IMG/VR virus record: IMGVR_UViG_3300050331_000011
Location: 1 to 27,555 of that record
Strand: one strand, 5' to 3'
Source of the DNA: a virus
Taxonomy: Duplodnaviria; Caudoviricetes
DNA length: 27,555 bases
A model generated the notes under the pieces. It was not told where the DNA came from and made no database searches. It saw only the letters and a program-made list of their open reading frames with translations. Every line of letters begins with the position of its first letter. The stretch's first letter is position 1. Positions 3,073 to 21,029 of the stretch are shown one piece after another. The position numbers and the translations under genes are program-made.

Positions 3073-3270
3073 ATGATTCACGAGAAGATCAGCAACGTGG
3101 CCACGGTACTGCGCGACCTGCGCCAGCATGTTGGCGAAGAGGAAGGGGAAGTCATGCGCCAGGCGTGCATCGTGCTGACCGCCGCCGCCGAGGACGTGCA
3201 GAATTTGGAAACCCTGCTGCCCATCGCCGGAACCGGCGAGGCGGCACAACACGCACCCGCACAAGCGTAG
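3073..3270 (+). CDS. Small hypothetical phage protein
   Basis: AAGGAG SD, 65 aa, fits operon spacing. Confidence 0.7.
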   Translation: MIHEKISNVATVLRDLRQHVGEEEGEVMRQACIVLTAAAEDVQNLETLLPIAGTGEAAQHAPAQA

Positions 3271-3281
3271 GAGGACGCACC

Positions 3282-3881
3282 ATGCTTGAAGGATACATGG
3301 AAAACGCCCAGGGGCACCAGGTGCCGCTGGGCCAGGTCCAGGAGATTGATCGGGCAAGGCACGAGTTGGTCATGGAGAAGGTGGCCAAGGTCCAGGCCAT
3401 GCACGAGGAGCTGTCCAAGCTCAAGGCCGAACTCATGGCCGACGTGGGCGCGTTCGTCTCCCTCTCCGCCGAGCGGTATGGAGCCAAGGTGGGCGGCGAC
3501 AAGGGCAACGTGACCCTGCTGTCTTACGACGGCAAGTACAAGATCGCACGCCAGGTGGCCGAGCACATCACCTTTGACGAGCGCCTCCAGGCGGCCAAGA
3601 GCCTGATTGACGAGTGCCTGCGCGATTGGACCAAGGACAGTCGCAGCGAAATTCAGGCGCTCATCGACTAAGCCTTCCAGGTCGATAAGGAAGGCCGCAT
3701 CAGCACCACCCGCATCCTGGGTCTGCGCCGCCTGGACATCACCGACGAGCGCTGGCGCACGGCCATGCAGGCCATCGGCGACTCCATCCAGGTCACGGGC
3801 ACCAAGTCTTACGTCCGCATTTACAAGCGCCAGGACAGCGGGGCCTACACGGCCATTTCGCTGGATATGGCGGCGATTTGA
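3282..3881 (+). pseudogene. DUF3164-family Mu-like phage protein interrupted by an in-frame TAA at 3669-3671
   Basis: SD GGAGG; KGNVTLLSYDG and FDERLQAAKSLIDEC motifs; the same frame continues after the stop as AFQVDKEGRISTTRILGLRRLDI..DERW..KSYVRIY to TGA 3881. Confidence 0.85.
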
Positions 3882-3963: not shown

Positions 3964-4416
3964 ATGAAGATCGAATCCCGCCGCACCCTGTTGGCAAAGG
4001 TCCACATCGGAGCCAAGGCCCTGGGCCTGGACGATGACACCTACCGCGACATGCTGGAGGCCCTCACCGGCCAGCGCTCGGCCGGGAAGCTCTCGGACAA
4101 GCAACTGGTGCTGGTGCTGTCCGCCATGCGCAAGCGCGGCTGGAACGATGAAGACCCGCGCCCGGCGCGCAAAAAGCCCAAGCCCCGCGCCACGCCGGGC
4201 ACCGCGCCTTTGCTGGACAAGATCGGCGCGCAGCTGGCCGACTCCGGGCGACCCTGGGCCTACGCCGAGGGCATGGCCAAGCACATGTACAAGGTGGAGC
4301 GGCTGGAATGGGCCAAGCCCGAGCAGCTGCGCGGCATCGTGGCCGCATTGACCAAGGACGCCCAACGTCGGGCGAAGCGGGAGGCCAGCCAGGCCGCCCA
4401 GGAGGTGGGCCTGTGA
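3964..4416 (+). CDS. gemA: GemA / Mu gp16 (DUF1018) family protein
   Basis: LAKVHIGAKALGLDDDTYRDMLEALTGQRSAGKLS and ..VERLEW..EQLRGIVAAL family-type motifs. Confidence 0.88.
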   Translation: MKIESRRTLLAKVHIGAKALGLDDDTYRDMLEALTGQRSAGKLSDKQLVLVLSAMRKRGWNDEDPRPARKKPKPRATPGTAPLLDKIGAQLADSGRPWAYAEGMAKHMYKVERLEWAKPEQLRGIVAALTKDAQRRAKREASQAAQEVGL

Positions 4417-4871
4417 GCACCGACACCATGGAATCATTGGCAGTGGACACCCTGCCCGCCACCGCGCGGGAGCTGGCCCAGCTCATCGGCCTGCAAAAGG
4501 CCCTGCGCCTGGTGGAGACCCTGGGCGGCACCACGTTCCCCGTGCCCAAGCGCGAAACCAAGCTGGGCGAGCTGCGCTTCAACGTGCTGGCCGACGTGGT
4601 GGGCGTGGAGGCGGCGGACGCCATGGTGCGCCGCTTCAGCGGCACGGACCTGTACATCCCTCGCTGTGCGGAGGCTTTGCGCAACGCCCGCGACGCCGCC
4701 ATCTGCGCCGAATACGACCGGCTCACCACCAGCATGAGCGGAAACGAAGCCGTGCAGCGCCTGGCTCGCGCGCATCGCCTGTCCGACCGGCATATCTTCA
4801 ACATCCTAAAGCGGATGCCCGTTACCACCGTCAACGTGGGCGGGGCCGTGCAACTGTCACTGCTGGGATAG
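4413..4871 (+). CDS. mor: Mor/C-family transcription activator
   Basis: GTGA overlap with gemA, GGAGGT SD; LVETLGGTTFPVPK, FSGTDLYIPRC, RDAAI, C-terminal HTH LARAHRLSDRHIFNILK. Confidence 0.9.
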   Translation: MSTDTMESLAVDTLPATARELAQLIGLQKALRLVETLGGTTFPVPKRETKLGELRFNVLADVVGVEAADAMVRRFSGTDLYIPRCAEALRNARDAAICAEYDRLTTSMSGNEAVQRLARAHRLSDRHIFNILKRMPVTTVNVGGAVQLSLLG

Positions 4872-4880
4872 CTCCACCTT

Positions 4881-4940
4881 GCGAAACCGCCCACACGGGC
4901 GGTCGGCCAGGCGTGGTTGCCCGGCCCTGAAGAGCAGCCA
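4881..4940 (+). ncRNA. Hammerhead ribozyme, type II with pseudoknot (copy 2)
   Basis: GC-GAAA-CCGCCC/acac/GGGCGG-TC-GGCCAGGC/gtggtt/GCCCGGCC-CTGAAGA-GC-AGCCA; predicted cleavage after C4904; one A-C mismatch in stem I. Confidence 0.88.
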
Positions 4941-4950
4941 AAGGTAGGGG

Positions 4951-5145
4951 ATGATGAAACAAATCAACGAAAATGACCGGGTGTTCTCCCGCCGCCATCG
5001 TAGCGGTGAAATCCGCGTGGATGTTGCCGGGAGCAAGGTGCTTTTGGGTCGCGTGATCAAGAAGGACGGCACTCCCGGTCGGGAGGTTATCGTCTCCGTC
5101 GCGGATGTCACTACCCGCTGGCCGTTCCTTCCTGGGGTGATGTGA
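4951..5145 (+). CDS. Small hypothetical protein
   Basis: 64 aa ORF after a purine-rich SD; stop overlaps the next ORF start. Confidence 0.6.
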   Translation: MMKQINENDRVFSRRHRSGEIRVDVAGSKVLLGRVIKKDGTPGREVIVSVADVTTRWPFLPGVM

Positions 5146-5369
5146 GTATGGCCGTCCCCCGCTTTATCGTCGCCCGCGCAGCCGGAGACTCCGTTACCCT
5201 GCGCGACACCGAACGCAAGCGCCTGGCCGTCGTCTTTCTGCGTGATAACAGCTTGCCAAATGACAAGGCAGAAGCCGCCGCCGTGCGTATGGCCGAAACC
5301 TGCGCCCTGGCGTTGAACCAGGTGCATGAGGCGGCCCAGGCCAAGATGCAAAAGGAGGGGGGCAAGTAA
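5142..5369 (+). CDS. Small hypothetical protein
   Basis: GTGA translational coupling, 75 aa. Confidence 0.6.
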   Translation: MSMAVPRFIVARAAGDSVTLRDTERKRLAVVFLRDNSLPNDKAEAAAVRMAETCALALNQVHEAAQAKMQKEGGK

Positions 5370-11769: not shown

Positions 11770-13369
11770 CCGGTTCAAGGCGGGCTTGGGCGGCCTATTC
11801 CGCAAAGGCCCGGCCGAGGAAATGCAGTCTGAGGCCCTGGCCCTGCTGCGGAGCGAGTTTTTGGCCAGCCTCACGGGCGGGCTCACCCCGGCCAAGCTGA
11901 ATCACATCCTGGCCAACGCGGACGCGGGCGACATCGGGGATATGTACCGCCTGTTCGCGGACATCGAAGACCGCGACGAGCACATCCACGCCGAGCTTTC
12001 CAAGCGCCGCCGGGCGCTCCTTGGCCCGCAGTGGAGCATCATGCCCGGCAAGGGCACGGGCACGGCCAAGAACCCGGATAAGCGCGCCATGGCCATTGCC
12101 GAGGCCGTGCGCGAGCAGTTTGACAGCATACCGGACTTTGAGGACATGGTGCTGGACCTGGCCGACGGCATCGGCCACGGCTTTGCCGCGCTGGAAATTG
12201 AATGGGGCTTTGACGGCCGCGCCCACGTGCCCGTGGGCCTGCACCACCGGCCGCAGACCTGGTTCCAGCTGCTGCCCCCGCAGTTCGGCGGCGACGGCAA
12301 CAGCTTGCGCCTGCGCGACGGCAGCATGGAGGGCCTGCCGCTCCAGCCCCTGGGCTGGGTGCTGCACCGCCACCGCAGCAAGTCTGGCTGGCTGGCCCGC
12401 TCCGGCCTGTTCCGCGTGCTGGTGTGGACCTTCTTGCTCAAGGGTTACGCGCGCGGCGACTTTGCCGAGTTCCTGGAGATCCACGGGCTCCCCCTGCGCG
12501 TGGGCACCTATCCGACCACGGCCACCAAGGAGGACAAGGCCGCCCTGAAGCGCGCCATCCAAGCCATTGGCCACGACGCGGCGGGCATCATCCCCGATGG
12601 AATGCTCATCGACTTCAAGGAGGCGGCCAAAGGCAGCGAGAAGCCCTTTGAAGCCATGTTGGCGCACTGCGAGCGTGGCCAGAGCAAGGCCATCCTGGGT
12701 GGCACCCTCACCAGCCAGGCCGACGGCAAGAGCAGCACCAACGCCCTGGGCAAGATTCATGACGAGGTGCGCCGCGACATCATGGCCAGCGACGCCCGGC
12801 AGATCGCCAGCACCATCACCCAGCAGCTGCTCATGCCCCTGGCTGTGCTCAACCAAGGCGTGAGCGACCCGGCCTTGCTGCCGTGGTTCAAGTTCGACGT
12901 GAGCGACCCGGCGGATTTGGGCGAGCTGGCCGAGGCCCTGCCCAAGCTGGCCGAGTGCATGCGCATCCCCGAAGCCTGGGCGCATGAGAAGGCGGGCATC
13001 CCTCTGCCCGAGGGCGATGAACCCGTGTTGCGCGTGGCTGGCCAGGCGCAGGAGCCGCCGTTAAACGGCAAGCCCAAGCCCGCGCCCCTCACCGCCGCGC
13101 TAACGGCTGGTGACGGCCAGGCAGGCTTTCCCGACCAGGACGCCCTGGAGGCAGCCACCGTGCCGGAAGCCACGCTGCAACGCATCATGGAACAACTGAC
13201 GGGCAGCCTGGTGACGGAGCTGAAGGACGGCAAGACGCCGGACGAGCTGTTGGCCGCGCTGGCCAGCCACTACCCGCGCATGGAGACCCGCGACATGGAG
13301 GAGCTGCTGGCGCGTGCCATGTTCGTGTCCGAAGTGTGGGGCCGCGTTTCGGCCCAGGGCGAGGAGTAA
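11747..13369 (+). CDS. Portal protein (DUF935 / Mu gp29-like)
   Basis: Start 11747 preferred over 11501; DFAEFLEIHGLPLRVGTY, SKAILGGTLTSQADG..STNALGKIHDEVR motifs. Confidence 0.92.
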   Translation: MKTTTIIDRFKAGLGGLFRKGPAEEMQSEALALLRSEFLASLTGGLTPAKLNHILANADAGDIGDMYRLFADIEDRDEHIHAELSKRRRALLGPQWSIMPGKGTGTAKNPDKRAMAIAEAVREQFDSIPDFEDMVLDLADGIGHGFAALEIEWGFDGRAHVPVGLHHRPQTWFQLLPPQFGGDGNSLRLRDGSMEGLPLQPLGWVLHRHRSKSGWLARSGLFRVLVWTFLLKGYARGDFAEFLEIHGLPLRVGTYPTTATKEDKAALKRAIQAIGHDAAGIIPDGMLIDFKEAAKGSEKPFEAMLAHCERGQSKAILGGTLTSQADGKSSTNALGKIHDEVRRDIMASDARQIASTITQQLLMPLAVLNQGVSDPALLPWFKFDVSDPADLGELAEALPKLAECMRIPEAWAHEKAGIPLPEGDEPVLRVAGQAQEPPLNGKPKPAPLTAALTAGDGQAGFPDQDALEAATVPEATLQRIMEQLTGSLVTELKDGKTPDELLAALASHYPRMETRDMEELLARAMFVSEVWGRVSAQGEE

Positions 13370-13370
13370 C

Positions 13371-13631
13371 ATGAAGCTGGAGCTTGAAGACCTCACCAAG
13401 GATGAGCTGATCCGCGTGATTCGGAAGTTTGCATGGCTGCACGCAAGCCAACGAGACTTGCTGTTTGTTCGGTGGGACACCTTGACGAAACGGGCGGACG
13501 CGCTGTTGGGGGAAAGCATCAAGGCGGGCAATGCCGGAGACTGGAAGCTCGCCGATAAACGATATGGCGAGTACGAGAAAGTGCAGAAAAGGGCCGACGC
13601 CGTGTACGCCGCCGGTATGGGGCAGATGTAG
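13371..13631 (+). CDS. Small hypothetical helical protein between portal and MuF
   Basis: GAGGAG SD, 86 aa, fills the gap exactly, lower GC than neighbours. Confidence 0.7.
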   Translation: MKLELEDLTKDELIRVIRKFAWLHASQRDLLFVRWDTLTKRADALLGESIKAGNAGDWKLADKRYGEYEKVQKRADAVYAAGMGQM

Positions 13632-13633
13632 CC

Positions 13634-14990
13634 ATGGCCATCCCTGAAGGCGTCTCCCTCTCCTTCGCCATGAGCCTGCCGCCCAAGGACGCCATCAGCT
13701 ATCTTGAGTCCAAAGGGGCCAAGATCACGTTCAACTGGCATGAGGTGTGGCAGGGTGCCCAGGCCAAGGCCTTCACCGTGGTGGGCGTGGCCCGCATGGA
13801 CGTGCTGGAGGACATCCGGGGCGCGGTGAAGCAGGCGCTGACCGAAGGCCGGACGCAGAAGATGTTCGCCAAAGACCTGGAGCCCGTGCTGCGGGCCAAG
13901 GGCTGGTGGGGCAAGCGAACCGAGATCGGCGCGGACGGCAAGGAACGCCAGGTGCAAATGGGCAGCCCGGCCAGGCTGAAGCTCATCTACCGCCAGAACA
14001 TGCAGACCGCCTACATGGCCGGGCGCTACAAGCAAATGCTGGAGAACGCCGACAACCGCCCCTGGTGGCGCTACGTGGCCGTGCTGGACCAACGCACCAG
14101 ACCCGCGCACCGGCTGCTGAACGGCCGAACCTTCCGCTTTGATGATGCGTTCTGGTCTAGCCACTACCCGCCCAACGGCTGGGGCTGCCGCTGCCGCGTG
14201 CAGGCGCTCTCGGACATGGGCCTGGAGCGCGAGGGCATCACCCCGGAGAGCGGCGAGGGCAACATGCGCACGCGTGACGTGGAGCTTGTGGACCGCCGCA
14301 CGGGCGAGGCCACCATGCGCCAGGTCACGGGCTACAAGGTGGGCACCGCCCCGGACGCGCCCACGGTGTGGACCGACCCCGGCTTTTCGTACAACCCCGG
14401 CGCGGCGGCCTATGGCCTGGACATGGAGGCCGCCCGGCGGCTCTCCCTGGTGCAGGACACGCAGCTGCGCGCCCAGGCAGTGCAGGCGCTGAACGGCAAC
14501 CCGGCCCGGCGGCAGGCCTGGGAGAACTTCGCGCGCGAGGTGCTGAACACCCGGCGCGGCGGCACGGCCCAAGCCCAGGTGGTGCACTTCATGCGCAACG
14601 CCGTGGCCCAGGCTGTGACCGAAGTCGGCGGCGAGCCGGTGCAGGTGGTCACGGCCAGCGCCAGGCGCATCTTGCACGCGGACAGCGCCAAGCACCGCCG
14701 CATGGGCACGGCCCCGGCGCAGGAGGATTTGCTGCGCCTGCCGCAGCTGCTGGACGAAAGCAACGGCCGTGCTGTGGGACGCGGACAACGCGAACCTGTT
14801 TTACGAGTGCCCAACGAAAGAGCCCGGCAAGGTGCTCAAGGTGGTGGTGGACGTGCCCATGCGTCCCAAGGACGCCAAGGGCCTGGGCAAGCTGGGGCGC
14901 TTTGACGCCGTGGTGAACGTGATGGAGGTGTTGTCTTCGGACATCCCGCTTGGCGGGCAGTCGCAGTACAAAAGACTTTGGCCAAAATAA
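13634..14990 (+). CDS. MuF (gp30) head morphogenesis protein with C-terminal putative PBECR-like nuclease domain; one extra base at 14757-14759
   Basis: MuF motifs RLKLIYRQN, DQRTRPAH, YPPNGWGCRCRV, DPGFSYNPG; removing one A joins LPQLLDE to ATAVLWDADNANLFY..KVVV, ending at TAA 14990 (451 aa). Confidence 0.8.
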
Positions 14991-15084
14991 TAACCCCGTG
15001 GGGGCGGACTTGCACCGCATACCGCGAGGAGGTTTCCCTCCCCCCGCCCGATTACTACCAGCTTCGGGTACGCCCACAGGGTCA
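14991..15084 (-). ncRNA. tRNA-like structured RNA without anticodon loop or encoded CCA
   Basis: Minus strand: 12-bp closing stem, UA, CCCGA/AGCTGGTAGTAA/TCGGG D-like arm, GGGGAGG/GAAA/CCTCCTC arm, GCGG/TGCAAGT/CCGC T-like arm. Confidence 0.65.
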
Positions 15085-15089
15085 AGGAA

Positions 15090-15118
15090 AAAATACGCAT
15101 GATTGTAATTGAAGTCAA
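15090..15118 (-). promoter_or_regulatory. Putative sigma70 promoter for the tRNA-like RNA
   Basis: TTGACT (15118-15113), 17-nt spacer, TATTTT (15095-15090); predicted +1 near 15083, at the 5' end of the closing stem. Confidence 0.6.
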
Positions 15119-15683
15119 TATAGACAGCGTGAAAAATGGACTCACGCGCCTAGCCGCGCTTGGCCAGAACATGACGCCGCTGACGCGCGACCTGGCGGAA
15201 ATCTTGAAGGGTGGCGTGGACCGCGCCTTTGCCGACGAGAAAGACCCGGCCACGGGCGAGAAGTGGCACCCGCTTTCTCCGGCCACCCTGGCCAGGCGCG
15301 CCAAGGCCGGACACACCGGCTCTATCCTCCAGGTGACGGGCCAGCTAGCCAGCAGCATACAGACGGAGCACGGCCCGCACCACGCTGCCGTGCTCACCAG
15401 CGACGTGCGCGCCCCCACGCACCAGTTCGGGGCCAAGAAGGGCAGCTACGGCACGGCCAAGCGCGGCACGCGGGGCACGGGCCGCCGCAACCCGCGCAAC
15501 TACACCGCGCGCGGCGGGGCCACCGTGGGCGGCTGGCTCTCCGGCCGGGCGCAGGGCGGCACCATGCCCTTGCCCTGGGGCGACATCCCGGCACGGCCCT
15601 TCCTGGGTATCGGCAAGCCGGAGGAAGCGGAAATTGAGGAGAGCCTTTCTAGGGCCGTGCGGCGGGCGCTGGCAGGGGCATAG
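15099..15683 (+). CDS. Virion morphogenesis protein (Mu gpG/gp31)
   Basis: DPATGEKWHPLSPAT, ILQVTGQLASSI, HQFG, IPARPFLGI motifs. Confidence 0.9.
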   Translation: MIVIEVNIDSVKNGLTRLAALGQNMTPLTRDLAEILKGGVDRAFADEKDPATGEKWHPLSPATLARRAKAGHTGSILQVTGQLASSIQTEHGPHHAAVLTSDVRAPTHQFGAKKGSYGTAKRGTRGTGRRNPRNYTARGGATVGGWLSGRAQGGTMPLPWGDIPARPFLGIGKPEEAEIEESLSRAVRRALAGA

Positions 15684-15751
15684 GGCGCGCGCTGGCGTCG
15701 CGTTGGTTCTAACGCCACTCTAACGCCCAAAGCGGCCGGGACTGGCCGCCT

Positions 15752-15807
15752 ACTGAAACCCTTCATCCTGTCCCGCCTCCCCCTGCCACCCTAAAACGGG
15801 TGGCATG
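15752..15807 (+). promoter_or_regulatory. Putative late promoter, copy 2 (PI-like)
   Basis: ACTGAAacccTTCAtCCTGTCC..tgccacccTAAAACgggtggcATG directly before the protease gene. Confidence 0.7.
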
Positions 15808-16995
15808 AAGCGCAAGCCCACCGACACCACACACAACGTCGCCAGCCTGGCCATGCCCCTTTCGGGGGGTGTGGCCTTGGCTGTTGGCGTTTCGGCAGAG
15901 GACATGCCGCCGGGCATGAACGCCCAGCTCTTCCCCGACGGCAGCTTCGCCGCGCGCGATGGCCGCCCGGCCAGCATCACCGAGGGCGCGCTCACTGCCT
16001 GGCTCATGGATGCGGACATTGCCGCCGCCGTGATCGCCAAGGTTGAGGCGCGCGCGTCCCAGCTGCCCGTGGACTATGAGCACCAGCTGCTGCTGGCCAA
16101 GCAAAACGGCAAGCCCGCGCCCTCCTCCGGGTGGATAACCGCCGTCAGCTACGTGCCCGGCCGGGGGCTCTTCGCCGCCGTGGACTGGAAGGCCCGCGCC
16201 CGCGAGCACATCTCGGCCGACGAATACCGCTACATTTCCCCCGTCTTCCGCTTCGACATAGCCACCGGCGCGGTGCTCGAAATCTTGAGCGTCGCGCTCA
16301 CCAACAACCCGGCCCTGGACGGCATGGACGCCGTGGCCCTGGCCGCGCTGTTCCCTTCAACCACTACCGCAACAACGGAGGACAACATGGACGAACTTTT
16401 GGAACGGCTGCGCTGGCTGCTCAACCTGCCCATCACCGCCACGGCGGAGGAGATCGTGGCGCAGCTGGACAAGCTCAAGGCGCAGATCACCGGCGGCGAC
16501 GCCGCAGCCGCGAGCGTGGACCTGCTGGCCCTGCTCAAGGACCAGAAAGAGAAGGATGATCAGTTGGCCGCCCTCACCAGCCAGGTGGCCGGGCTTTCCG
16601 AAGGGCCGGACCCGGCCAAGTTTGCGCCCGTGGCCGCGCTGGCCAGCTTGCAGCAGGCCAACGCCGAGCTAAAAACCCAGGTGGCGCAGCTGACCAGCGG
16701 CGCGCAGGCCACCAAGGTGGACACGCTGATCCAGGCCGCCCTGGCCGATGGACGGCTCACCGCTGGCCTGGAGCCCTGGGCGCGCCAACTGGGGGCCAAG
16801 GACGAGGCCGCGCTTACCACCTTCCTTACCGCCGCCGCGCCCGTGGCCGCGCTCGGCTCCATGCAGAGCAGCGGGCTGCCCGGCGGCGCTCCCCCGGCCA
16901 GCGGCACCGCCGCCCTTTCGGCTGACGAAGCCTACGCCGCCGACCAGTTCGGCATGACTCCTGAAGAATACAAGAAAGCCAAGGAGGCCAAGTAA
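15805..16995 (+). CDS. Prohead protease (Mu gpI) with C-terminal scaffold
   Basis: LPVDYEHQ, EYRYISPVF, VALTNNPALDGM motifs; Ala-rich helical C-terminus. Confidence 0.92.
   Translation: MKRKPTDTTHNVASLAMPLSGGVALAVGVSAEDMPPGMNAQLFPDGSFAARDGRPASITEGALTAWLMDADIAAAVIAKVEARASQLPVDYEHQLLLAKQNGKPAPSSGWITAVSYVPGRGLFAAVDWKARAREHISADEYRYISPVFRFDIATGAVLEILSVALTNNPALDGMDAVALAALFPSTTTATTEDNMDELLERLRWLLNLPITATAEEIVAQLDKLKAQITGGDAAAASVDLLALLKDQKEKDDQLAALTSQVAGLSEGPDPAKFAPVAALASLQQANAELKTQVAQLTSGAQATKVDTLIQAALADGRLTAGLEPWARQLGAKDEAALTTFLTAAAPVAALGSMQSSGLPGGAPPASGTAALSADEAYAADQFGMTPEEYKKAKEAK
16387..16995 (+). CDS. Internal in-frame scaffolding protein (Mu gpZ-like)
   Basis: GGAGG SD before the in-frame ATG (MDELLERLRWLLNLP), after a Thr-rich linker. 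Confidence 0.65.
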   Translation: MDELLERLRWLLNLPITATAEEIVAQLDKLKAQITGGDAAAASVDLLALLKDQKEKDDQLAALTSQVAGLSEGPDPAKFAPVAALASLQQANAELKTQVAQLTSGAQATKVDTLIQAALADGRLTAGLEPWARQLGAKDEAALTTFLTAAAPVAALGSMQSSGLPGGAPPASGTAALSADEAYAADQFGMTPEEYKKAKEAK

Positions 16996-19602: not shown

Positions 19603-21029
19603 ATGGCCAGCGCAAACATCCAGTTCGACGAAATCCGCGCGTCCATCAGGAAGCCGGGGAAATACTTCGAGTTCAACACAAAGCTGGCAGTTCGCACCCT
19701 GCCGACCAATGACCAGCGCGTTTTGCTCATCGGCCAGCGCCTGGCCAGCGGCTCCGTGGCGGAGCTGACCGCCGTGCAAGTCTTCAGCGACGCGGAATGC
19801 CGCCGTCAGCTTTGGCGAGGGCTCCATGCTGCACCGCATGGTGCGGGCGGCCATCAAGGCTTACCCGTACATCGACATCACCTGCATCGCCCTAGATGAT
19901 GCCGCCGCAGGAATTGCCGCCACGGCAACCGCCACCCTTACCGGCCCGGCCTCGGGCTCGGGTGTGGTCACGTTGCGCGTGGGCACGGAGCTGGTGCAGT
20001 TGGCCGTGGCCAGTGGCGACACCGCCACCGAGATCGCGGCGGCGCTGAAGGCCCAGGCCGACCAGCAGACCGACCTGCCCGTGGCCCTTGCGGCGGCGGC
20101 GGGCGTGCTCACCATCACCGCCCGGCACAAGGGTGCGCACGGCAACGGCATCAAACTGTCCCCCAGCAGCACCGCCGCAGGCGTCACCCACTGTGGCCAC
20201 GGCCATGGCAGGCGGTCAGGTGGACCCGTCCATAACCCGACCCGCTGATCTGGTGGCGGACTCTGGCCACAACCTGCTCATCACCCCGTACACCGACCAC
20301 GTGAACCTAGTGGCCCTGCGCGACCACCTGGACTTCGTGGGTGGCGCGCTTGAGCAGCGCGGGGCCTGCGGCGTGTACGCCCTGGTGGGCACCCTGGCCC
20401 AGGCCACCACCCTGGCCGGGAGCGTGAACAGCGGGCGCATCACCGGCGCGGCCATCAACGGCGTGTACCGCCTGCCCTGGGAAGTGGCTGCGGGCGCGGG
20501 GGCCGTGGTGGCCAGCGAGGAAGACCCGTCCCGGCCTTTGAACGGCTTGCCCATCAAGGGCATGGACGTGCCGGATACCGGCTTCCGCTGGACGCGCACC
20601 GAGCAGGAAGTGCTGTTGAAAAACGGCGTCATGCCCCTGGAGGTGGGGGCGGACGGCACCAGCGTGCAGATCGTGCGCGCCATCAGCACCTACACCAAGG
20701 ACGGCCAGGGCATCCAGGACGTTGACCTGCTGGACCTGACCACCATCCGCACGCTTGATTATGTGCGCAAGGCCGCGCGCACGCGCCTGGCCCTGCGCTT
20801 CCCGCGTGAGAAGTTGACCGCCCGCACCGAGGCCGCCGTGCGTGGCGAGGTGCTGGACGTGCTCTTCAAGCTGGAGGCGCTTGAAATCATCGAGAACGTG
20901 GAGGCCAATAAGGACAAGCTCATCATTGAGCGCGACCTTCAGGACGCCAACCGCCTGAACATCCGCATCCCCGTGGACGTGGTCAACGGCCTGCACATCA
21001 TCGCGGGCGTTATCGACCTGTACCTGTAA
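19603..21029 (+). CDS. Tail sheath protein (Mu gpL), split into three ORFs by extra bases near 19798 and 20188
   Basis: SIRKPGKYFEFNT N-terminus; FGEGSMLHRMV; EEDPSRPLN, IVRAISTY, LDLTTIRTLDYVRKA, DVVNGLHIIAGVIDL. Confidence 0.88.

Follow-up and report, generated by a model that had tools for sequence, protein, structure and literature searches.

What occupies the gap between two head genes of a Mu-like phage that are elsewhere contiguous, and why does it face the wrong way? We analysed a viral contig of 27,555 nucleotides (the window, i.e., the whole stretch of DNA under study), which corresponds to a Mu-like phage encoding a transposase, GemA, Mor, portal, MuF, gpG, protease, gpT and tail genes. 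The closest homologs of its MuF protein were named from Humidesulfovibrio and other Desulfovibrionales-type hosts. A tRNA-like element occupies the 108 nt separating the MuF stop from the gpG start. A reading of this DNA made from sequence only had described the element as an anticodon-less tRNA mimic with its own promoter, and had proposed it as an RNA antitoxin or decoy for a nuclease carried by MuF. A blastn search with the element's region gave no match among annotated phages.

The element between MuF and gpG

The genes and the parts of the element are as follows.

13634..14990, plus strand: long MuF (gpF) gene, with PF04233 at codons 60-189 and a PBECR/MuF_C-like tail; frameshifted in the assembly
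14757, plus strand: extra base shifting the MuF frame, absent in the contigs of runs X2, X3 and X4
14991..15085, minus strand: tRNA-like RNA, predicted transcript of about 94 nt (fold z -3.28; 39.7 bits with model R2)
14991..15003, minus strand: 3' strand of the acceptor-like stem, no CCA
15004..15018, minus strand: T-like arm, with a 4-bp stem and the 7-nt loop UGCAAGU (C56 and A58 kept, G at 55)
15023..15046, minus strand: hairpin where the anticodon arm would be, with a GAAA tetraloop (15033-15036); its sequence is free and its pairing kept
15047..15068, minus strand: D-like arm, with a 5-bp stem and a 12-nt loop starting with AG and holding the conserved GG, preceded by a UA linker (15069-15070)
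15071..15084, minus strand: 5' strand of the extended acceptor-like stem (12 bp, a bulged C, then a G able to pair with the C at 15003)
15090..15118, minus strand: sigma70-type promoter motif; its -35 box (15113-15118) lies within gpG codons and its -10 box is at 15090-15095
15099..15683, plus strand: gpG (virion morphogenesis) gene (PF05069, TIGR01635), whose start overlaps the promoter motif

The minus strand of 14991-15085 folds into four arms at -50.8 kcal/mol, and none of 200 shuffled sequences was equally stable; the plus strand gives a weaker fold (-39.1 kcal/mol, z -2.13). The strand and the tRNA-like shape proposed beforehand were thus both recovered. The RNA is a cloverleaf with the D-loop GG and a T-loop. 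It has a GAAA tetraloop in place of the 7-nt anticodon loop, a 4-nt linker between this hairpin and the T-like stem, and a stem of 12 bp instead of the canonical 7-bp acceptor stem with discriminator and CCA. It is a derived variant: most relatives have a T-stem of 5 bp and a UUCGA T-loop, versus 4 bp and a G at position 55 here. Neither of the programs suggested for checking the element called it, i.e., ARAGORN found no tRNA in the window, and the Rfam search of 14000-16000 returned merely two chance matches, both outside the element. A model whose training set included five close relatives of the window copy (R2) matched it with an E-value of 8e-10, the next match scoring 9.5 bits. A model built from diverged copies alone (R1) gave it 8.4 bits (E 1.7, rank 2).

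The sequence-only reading had also noted a promoter overlapping the gpG start. This motif, TTGACT-17-TATTTT (15118..15090), is present and is the sole promoter-like site in 14500-15900, where 0.1 are expected; its -10 box ends 5-6 nt before the fold. Across the family, a motif matching at least 9 of 12 positions lies directly upstream of 45 of the 57 copies, against 2.2% of shuffles, in a set where the loci are related and where, in the close family, the -35 box overlaps gpG codons. On these motifs, the element is likely transcribed from its own promoter. We also looked for an intrinsic terminator 3' of the RNA and rejected it as a general feature (at least five U in 8 nt in 18 of the 57 copies). 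The antisense ORF at 14649-15077 was likewise discarded as a candidate immunity protein: it is not conserved, and antisense ORFs in five diverged loci range from 24 to 86 aa.

The 3' end of the RNA had been said to abut the MuF stop codon. Its position is as claimed, and a second TAA, at 14991-14993, is the source of the complementary UUA with which the RNA ends. The stop of the assembled ORF is elsewhere, at 14905, owing to a frameshift; the true C-terminus lies in another frame and runs to the TAA at 14988-14990. The base at 14757 is missing from near-identical contigs in three of the four runs compared, all from one study, the contig of the fourth beginning just behind that place. Since near-identical contigs lack the base and the MuF homologs are intact (450-452 aa), the frameshift is, judged from these comparisons, an assembly error or a private mutation. 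The tail sheath is split over several ORFs (19603-21029) and DUF3164 is shortened (3165-3671), which suggests that the contig has more frameshifts or assembly errors. A small ORF whose function was not recognised (13368-13631, plus strand) lies between portal and MuF; it occurs in three distinct close loci of our dataset (L001, L003, L014), is absent in others, and is not tied to the RNA.

A tRNA-derived RNA family and its MuF tails

The window element belongs to an RNA family that is convergent on the MuF genes of Mu-like phages with PBECR/MuF_C tails, from Desulfovibrionales to Escherichia coli. In close relatives the element adjoins the MuF stop, and so it does in distant ones, which carry canonical UUCGA T-loops. 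Throughout the family the RNA is convergent with MuF and abuts or overlaps its stop. The D-loop GG and the T-loop are kept, and the nucleotides of these elbow loops are invariant.

Conserved structure with covariation had been predicted beside homologous tails, and this was borne out. When 14 diverged copies were aligned by MAFFT alone, 84% of the cells paired (97% in the T-stem, 69% in the D-stem) and 7 of the 11 pairs showed compensatory changes, the structure having been drawn from these same sequences. In 48 copies fitted to the model, an alignment that leans toward the structure, 17 of 19 pairs covary, with a score of 0.539 against 0.190 when shuffled and at most 0.144 when slid. Among 12 close copies, compensatory changes affect three of the six pairs of the third arm; here RNAalifold preferred another helix over the D-stem. 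In the mixed alignment A5 it retained merely two pairs, because the groups with 4-bp and 5-bp T-stems are out of register.

The description of the RNA as anticodon-less applies to the window and to most of the family: the arm in the anticodon position has a loop of 3-4 nt in 33 of the 43 folded arms, a list that includes one false match. It does not extend to a few members, which keep a 7-nt loop (three arms). CCA is encoded at 74-76 in none of 46 copies. The Rfam tRNA cut-off was passed by 3 of the 12 loci tested. When R2 was run on 151 genomes of the host order, the two best matches (59.4 and 53.1 bits) adjoined MuF tails, one being a training locus and the other new; the other 28 of the 30 matches examined were true tRNAs, with scores up to 46.8 bits. 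The best true-tRNA matches of the family model were mostly Gly and Gln. Because members pass the Rfam cut-off for tRNA and R2 matches true tRNAs, the family is, by its sequences, tRNA-derived. In three loci (L311:1501-1592, L041 and L113) the third loop contains UUGCA, a hint at the ancestral tRNA or at the target; ARAGORN calls the L311 copy a tRNA-Ala. One family copy matched 172 of 5426 E. coli genomes. Among the 15 matches listed, 14 overlap a head morphogenesis gene and 7 are annotated tRNA-OTHER in RefSeq.

Two loci depart from the usual arrangement. In L216 (2232-2547, minus strand), a single MuF is followed by three tandem tRNA-like copies; the promoter motifs of the first and the third are nearly identical, and the second and third copies are unlike any other. 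This looks like an orphan-immunity array, by analogy. In L007, the RNA is intact, though it lies about 890 nt away from MuF, with a new gene in between. This gene encodes 265 aa (phrog_26561; 4428-5225, minus strand) between the RNA 3' end and MuF, in the direction of the RNA, and may use the RNA's promoter.

The tail of MuF was proposed to be a nuclease, and its predicted structure favours this view. Its relevant positions are:

14426..14990, plus strand: tail domain with a predicted BECR RNase fold (model of the L002 homolog; weak BECR matches; homologs match MuF_C and PBECR3)
14675..14695, plus strand: His348-x5-His354 motif of the predicted active-site helix, intact by comparison with homologs
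14916..14918, plus strand: second position of the predicted active site, an Asn in the last core strand (N/T conservation among loci)

The window locus has a MuF domain joined to a putative C-terminal toxin domain within the head module. The L002 tail model (pLDDT 93.7, 59 sequences) shows a His-bearing helix followed by a meander sheet, as in BECR RNases. At the terminal-strand position, which is Thr or Ser in BECR, the clade of the window has Asn and sister groups have Thr, the two His being kept. Foldseek found no match in the PDB for the full or tail models, and a sequence profile found nothing credible among PDB sequences. A wider fold search gave weak scores, all with Z at or below 5.0. 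The best match was BrnT (Z 5.0, rmsd 3.5 over 76 aligned positions) and an unrelated chain ranked second (Z 4.7); most top matches were BECR RNases, including CdiA-CT of Klebsiella pneumoniae 342 and E. coli NC101 (both 4.1), colicin D (4.0) and RelE (3.8). CDI toxins cut acceptor stems and colicin D cuts the anticodon loop. With neighbours this diverse, with CCA missing too and a 7-nt loop kept by a few members, the proposal of the sequence-only reading that the RNA escapes cleavage for want of an anticodon is one possibility among others. Of the 59 aligned tail homologs, 25 match MuF_C and 9 PBECR3 (E 0.05 or better); the L002 tail itself matches neither. Hence, the tail is BECR-like by its model and these weak fold matches, and its catalytic residues are predictions.

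We then compared the presence of the RNA with the state of the tail. The 282 usable loci were reduced to 205 after removal of duplicates: 61 with a short MuF, one intermediate, and 143 with a long MuF. A strict detector, which misses copies visible by eye, found the RNA on the minus strand of 52 of the 143 long-MuF loci and on the plus strand of none. It found none in the 61 short-MuF loci, where absence had been anticipated, and in 51 of these gpG abuts MuF. R1, which missed 6 of the 11 RNA-bearing close-family loci tested, had no match in 16 RNA-less long-MuF loci or in the 17 short-MuF loci tested. Its second match in L236 lies inside gpG and was taken as false.

The clade of the window comprises 92 long tails, or 90 once L047, which is frameshifted, and L154, which lacks gpG and whose tail is interrupted by a rearrangement, are set aside; L195 was re-scored as RNA-less after inspection. 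Here we counted the RNA as present where the spacer has at least 50 nt, checked by model or by eye, which was so in 74 loci and not in 16. All 65 tails with both predicted catalytic His have the spacer with the RNA. None of the 16 RNA-less loci has both His and 13 have neither; the RNA was kept in none of these 13 loci that lost both. Nine RNA-bearing tails have only one His of the pair. N or T stands at the terminal-strand position in 72 of the 74 RNA-bearing tails versus one of the 16 RNA-less ones.

On a tree of the N-terminal part of MuF, the RNA changes 11 times. Ten independent pairs gave about seven concordant with the first His and none discordant (median p about 0.016); a looser trait, chosen afterwards, gave eight concordant pairs (p 0.008). 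These values replace that of an earlier tree of 38 loci in which the tail was included (p 0.06). Mu, D3112 and DMS3 are RNA-less and His-less, gpF and gpG overlapping in Mu, and L012, which is 78% identical to P0001, has lost both the RNA and the His helix. Repeated co-loss therefore links the RNA to the predicted catalytic His, which goes beyond what the sequence-only reading predicted.

Different tail families carry different RNA classes. Outside the clade of the window we examined 51 other long tails; gpG abuts MuF in none of the 36 that have a gpG match. A second RNA class follows PBECR3-like tails: its first and last loops hold invariant pentamers, complementary to each other, in all 14 copies (L019, L020, L075, L092, L098, L107, L125, L126, L133, L255, L276, L287, L289, L291). 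These pentamers could possibly pair as an elbow or loop-loop pseudoknot. The consensus analysis of this class gave a partial consensus and no covariation, and its strand is assigned from promoter motifs seen by eye. For the other RNA classes the minus strand is the more stable in 19 of 31 cases, so that energy does not settle the strand.

Possible roles of the RNA

MuF toxins usually have an immunity ORF next downstream (89%, according to the available text of Jamet 2017, PMC5576092). No small immunity ORF lies downstream of the window MuF, where the 108-nt spacer is filled by the RNA and its promoter. We consider it probable that the RNA would act as a substrate-mimic antitoxin that blocks the MuF tail and replaces the immunity protein, because it lies where an immunity gene would be expected, its promoter is separate from the late operon, it mimics the putative substrate class, and it is never missing where both His are present. 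The tail would travel in the head as part of MuF and would be an active RNase directed at tRNA. Thanks to a host-type promoter, the RNA would be made in lysogens and in cells that the DNA has just entered, independently of the late operon. The RNA would offer the tRNA elbow and body for binding, stripped of the parts needed for charging or decoding. While MuF is being made late, the RNA could shield the cell that produces it; it could also guard lysogens from sibling particles. After loss of the active site, the RNA would be deleted and gpF and gpG would abut again, as in phage Mu, whose PBECR is described as inactive in the consulted part of Iyer et al. (PMC5512222).

Several results count against an antitoxin. 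Dead tails keep no RNA, whereas an antitoxin might linger as orphan immunity; the fold matches are weak; nine RNA-bearing tails have a single His; the R1 score on the window copy is low, and RNAalifold has an alternative to the D-stem. Iyer et al. further argued, in the same part of PMC5512222, that PBECRs would not cut host tRNA, since the phage needs it, and suggested non-tRNA targets. In contrast, a 2026 bioRxiv preprint (10.64898/2026.08.28.747851), in the portion available, assigns PBECRs to the colicin-like group, in which most characterised members cut tRNA.

The symmetric co-loss fits a cofactor or substrate RNA equally well. Such an obligate partner, i.e., a cofactor, scaffold or dedicated substrate of the tail in a complex acting after infection (e.g., against host RNA-based defence), would be useless once the enzyme dies. 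This would account for the perfect symmetry of the loss, with no RNA in the 13 dead tails, and for the change of RNA class with tail family, and it agrees with the non-tRNA targets of Iyer et al. We nevertheless find it unlikely: the RNA occupies the immunity slot, its host-type promoter is separate from the late operon, it looks like what colicin-like BECR enzymes usually cut (as given in the portion of that preprint available), and it has extra non-cognate copies in L216 that are hard to explain as cofactors. Those distal tandem copies are equally awkward for a cis-antisense role, in which the convergent promoter would act by read-through or collision to shut off leaky expression of MuF in lysogens, the tRNA fold merely stabilising the transcript or marking it for processing. 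The constant convergent position at the MuF stop speaks for this role, as does the lack of a general U-tract behind the RNA, which leaves read-through possible. Yet the invariant elbow nucleotides are needless for pairing with an mRNA, the L007 RNA is intact far from MuF, and the RNA class changes with the tail class, and we give antisense silencing little credence.

If the element drew off host anti-phage tRNA nucleases or other proteins that bind tRNA, as a decoy that happens to lie beside MuF, this would explain genuine tRNA mimicry and an early host-type promoter. Such a decoy would not vanish whenever the tail of MuF loses its His, nor would it be lacking in all 61 short-MuF loci, and among the 30 model matches examined those outside MuF loci were only true tRNAs, all of which makes it very improbable. 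That the element is a decaying tRNA remnant or a functionless integration scar is hardly credible, in spite of its tRNA homology and of the tRNA-OTHER label of some E. coli copies: its pairs show compensatory changes, its promoters are kept, its position and orientation are fixed across distant hosts, it is lost together with the active site, and the phage has a Mu-type transposase.

If the RNA is an antitoxin, a broader system can be proposed tentatively, which we regard as possible and somewhat doubtful. Transposable phages would carry a polymorphic poison-antidote system with RNA immunity, made of a MuF-borne tRNA-cutting RNase, tRNA-derived mimics matched to each tail (the canonical-elbow class, the complementary-pentamer class after PBECR3 tails, and others) and orphan arrays. 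A cell destroying the phage DNA would be left with the poison, because the antidote would be made from the incoming genome by the host promoter, and lysogens would be immune.

Relation to known systems and to other MuF tails

In type III toxin-antitoxin systems (ToxIN, CptIN and TenpIN, and also AvcID and AbiF), a structured RNA blocks a protein toxin, which, as far as the accessible descriptions go, is the logic proposed here. ToxI-type RNAs are tandem pseudoknot repeats placed upstream, within the toxin operon. Here a single tRNA-derived cloverleaf lies downstream on the opposite strand, and the putative toxin has a predicted BECR fold and is fused to a virion protein. The tail has no Pfam match to a ToxN-family toxin, the fold list pointing to BECR with weak Z scores, and the element has no Rfam match to the ToxIN, CptIN or TenpIN RNA families. 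Across nine loci, the Rfam search at gathering level gave merely the unrelated sRNA-Xcc1. That match (RF02221) is above the cut-off and lies in a Mu-like phage locus (L024:1129-1214, minus strand).

The MuF polymorphic toxins (PMC5576092, PMC5512222) are alike in joining MuF to a C-terminal BECR-type tail in the head module, with a small element after the toxin gene that is missing after short MuF. In the parts of these papers at hand, their immunity ORF is co-oriented, versus a convergent structured RNA with its own promoter here, and those parts of Jamet 2017 and Iyer 2017 hold no mention of a tRNA-like RNA beside MuF. The allo-tRNAs (Mukai 2017, PMC5389517; available text) are also irregular and tRNA-like, with short T-stems or bulged acceptors, some inactive in translation and near toxin-antitoxin genes. 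They keep anticodons and lie loosely near varied toxin-antitoxin loci, whereas our family lacks the anticodon loop in most members, lacks CCA and is tied to the active site of one domain. Their 8/4 or 9/3 form (a 12-bp acceptor/T branch with an anticodon) does not occur here, the 4-bp T-stem being found in the close family only. Canonical tRNAs (RF00005) share the acceptor, D and T arms, the D-loop GG and the T-loop C56 and A58, and some members of our family pass their cut-off; the family differs in having no anticodon loop in most members, no encoded CCA, an extended acceptor stem and often a 5-bp D-stem.

The DUF3800, drum and skipping-rope motifs (Weinberg 2017, PMC5737381) are a parallel in that, in the available part of the paper, unlike RNAs stand beside one protein family in either orientation. 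They adjoin other proteins and are not described there as tRNA-like, and Rfam gave no match of our element to them. Fremin 2023 (PMC10690425, available part) lists unnamed phage RNA candidates, one of them beside gpG-family genes (DNAVirus_1035). Our family may be catalogued there under that name without a function, the two having been compared by description only. The part of PMC13502914 at hand holds nothing on a tRNA-like MuF-linked RNA, and the open-access literature, to which the search was confined, gave no description of one. If the antitoxin reading is true, this would be, as far as that literature goes, the first case of a polymorphic toxin with RNA immunity, and the first of an antitoxin made from a tRNA stripped into a substrate mimic. 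It would make testable the role of MuF/gpF tails and how phages tolerate them. It would account for the dead, RNA-less tail of Mu, while close relatives carry both parts, and for the tRNA-OTHER annotation in E. coli Mu-like prophages. The presence of the RNA would mark PBECR tails that are probably active, with the cognate pairs as a ready specificity set.

Further structured RNAs were seen beside MuF. In L238, L239 and L256, the RNA behind intact tails with two His is another variant, whose T-loop is non-canonical, and this suggests replacement of the RNA within the clade. Behind another type of MuF tail, in loci L025-L032, tRNA-like elements with the T-loop CGCAAAU occur singly or as a tandem pair after position 4201. 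Structured spacers also follow other tail types in L104, L109, L116, L120, L127, L135, L138, L139, L018 and L096, and the L018 tail matches PBECR2.
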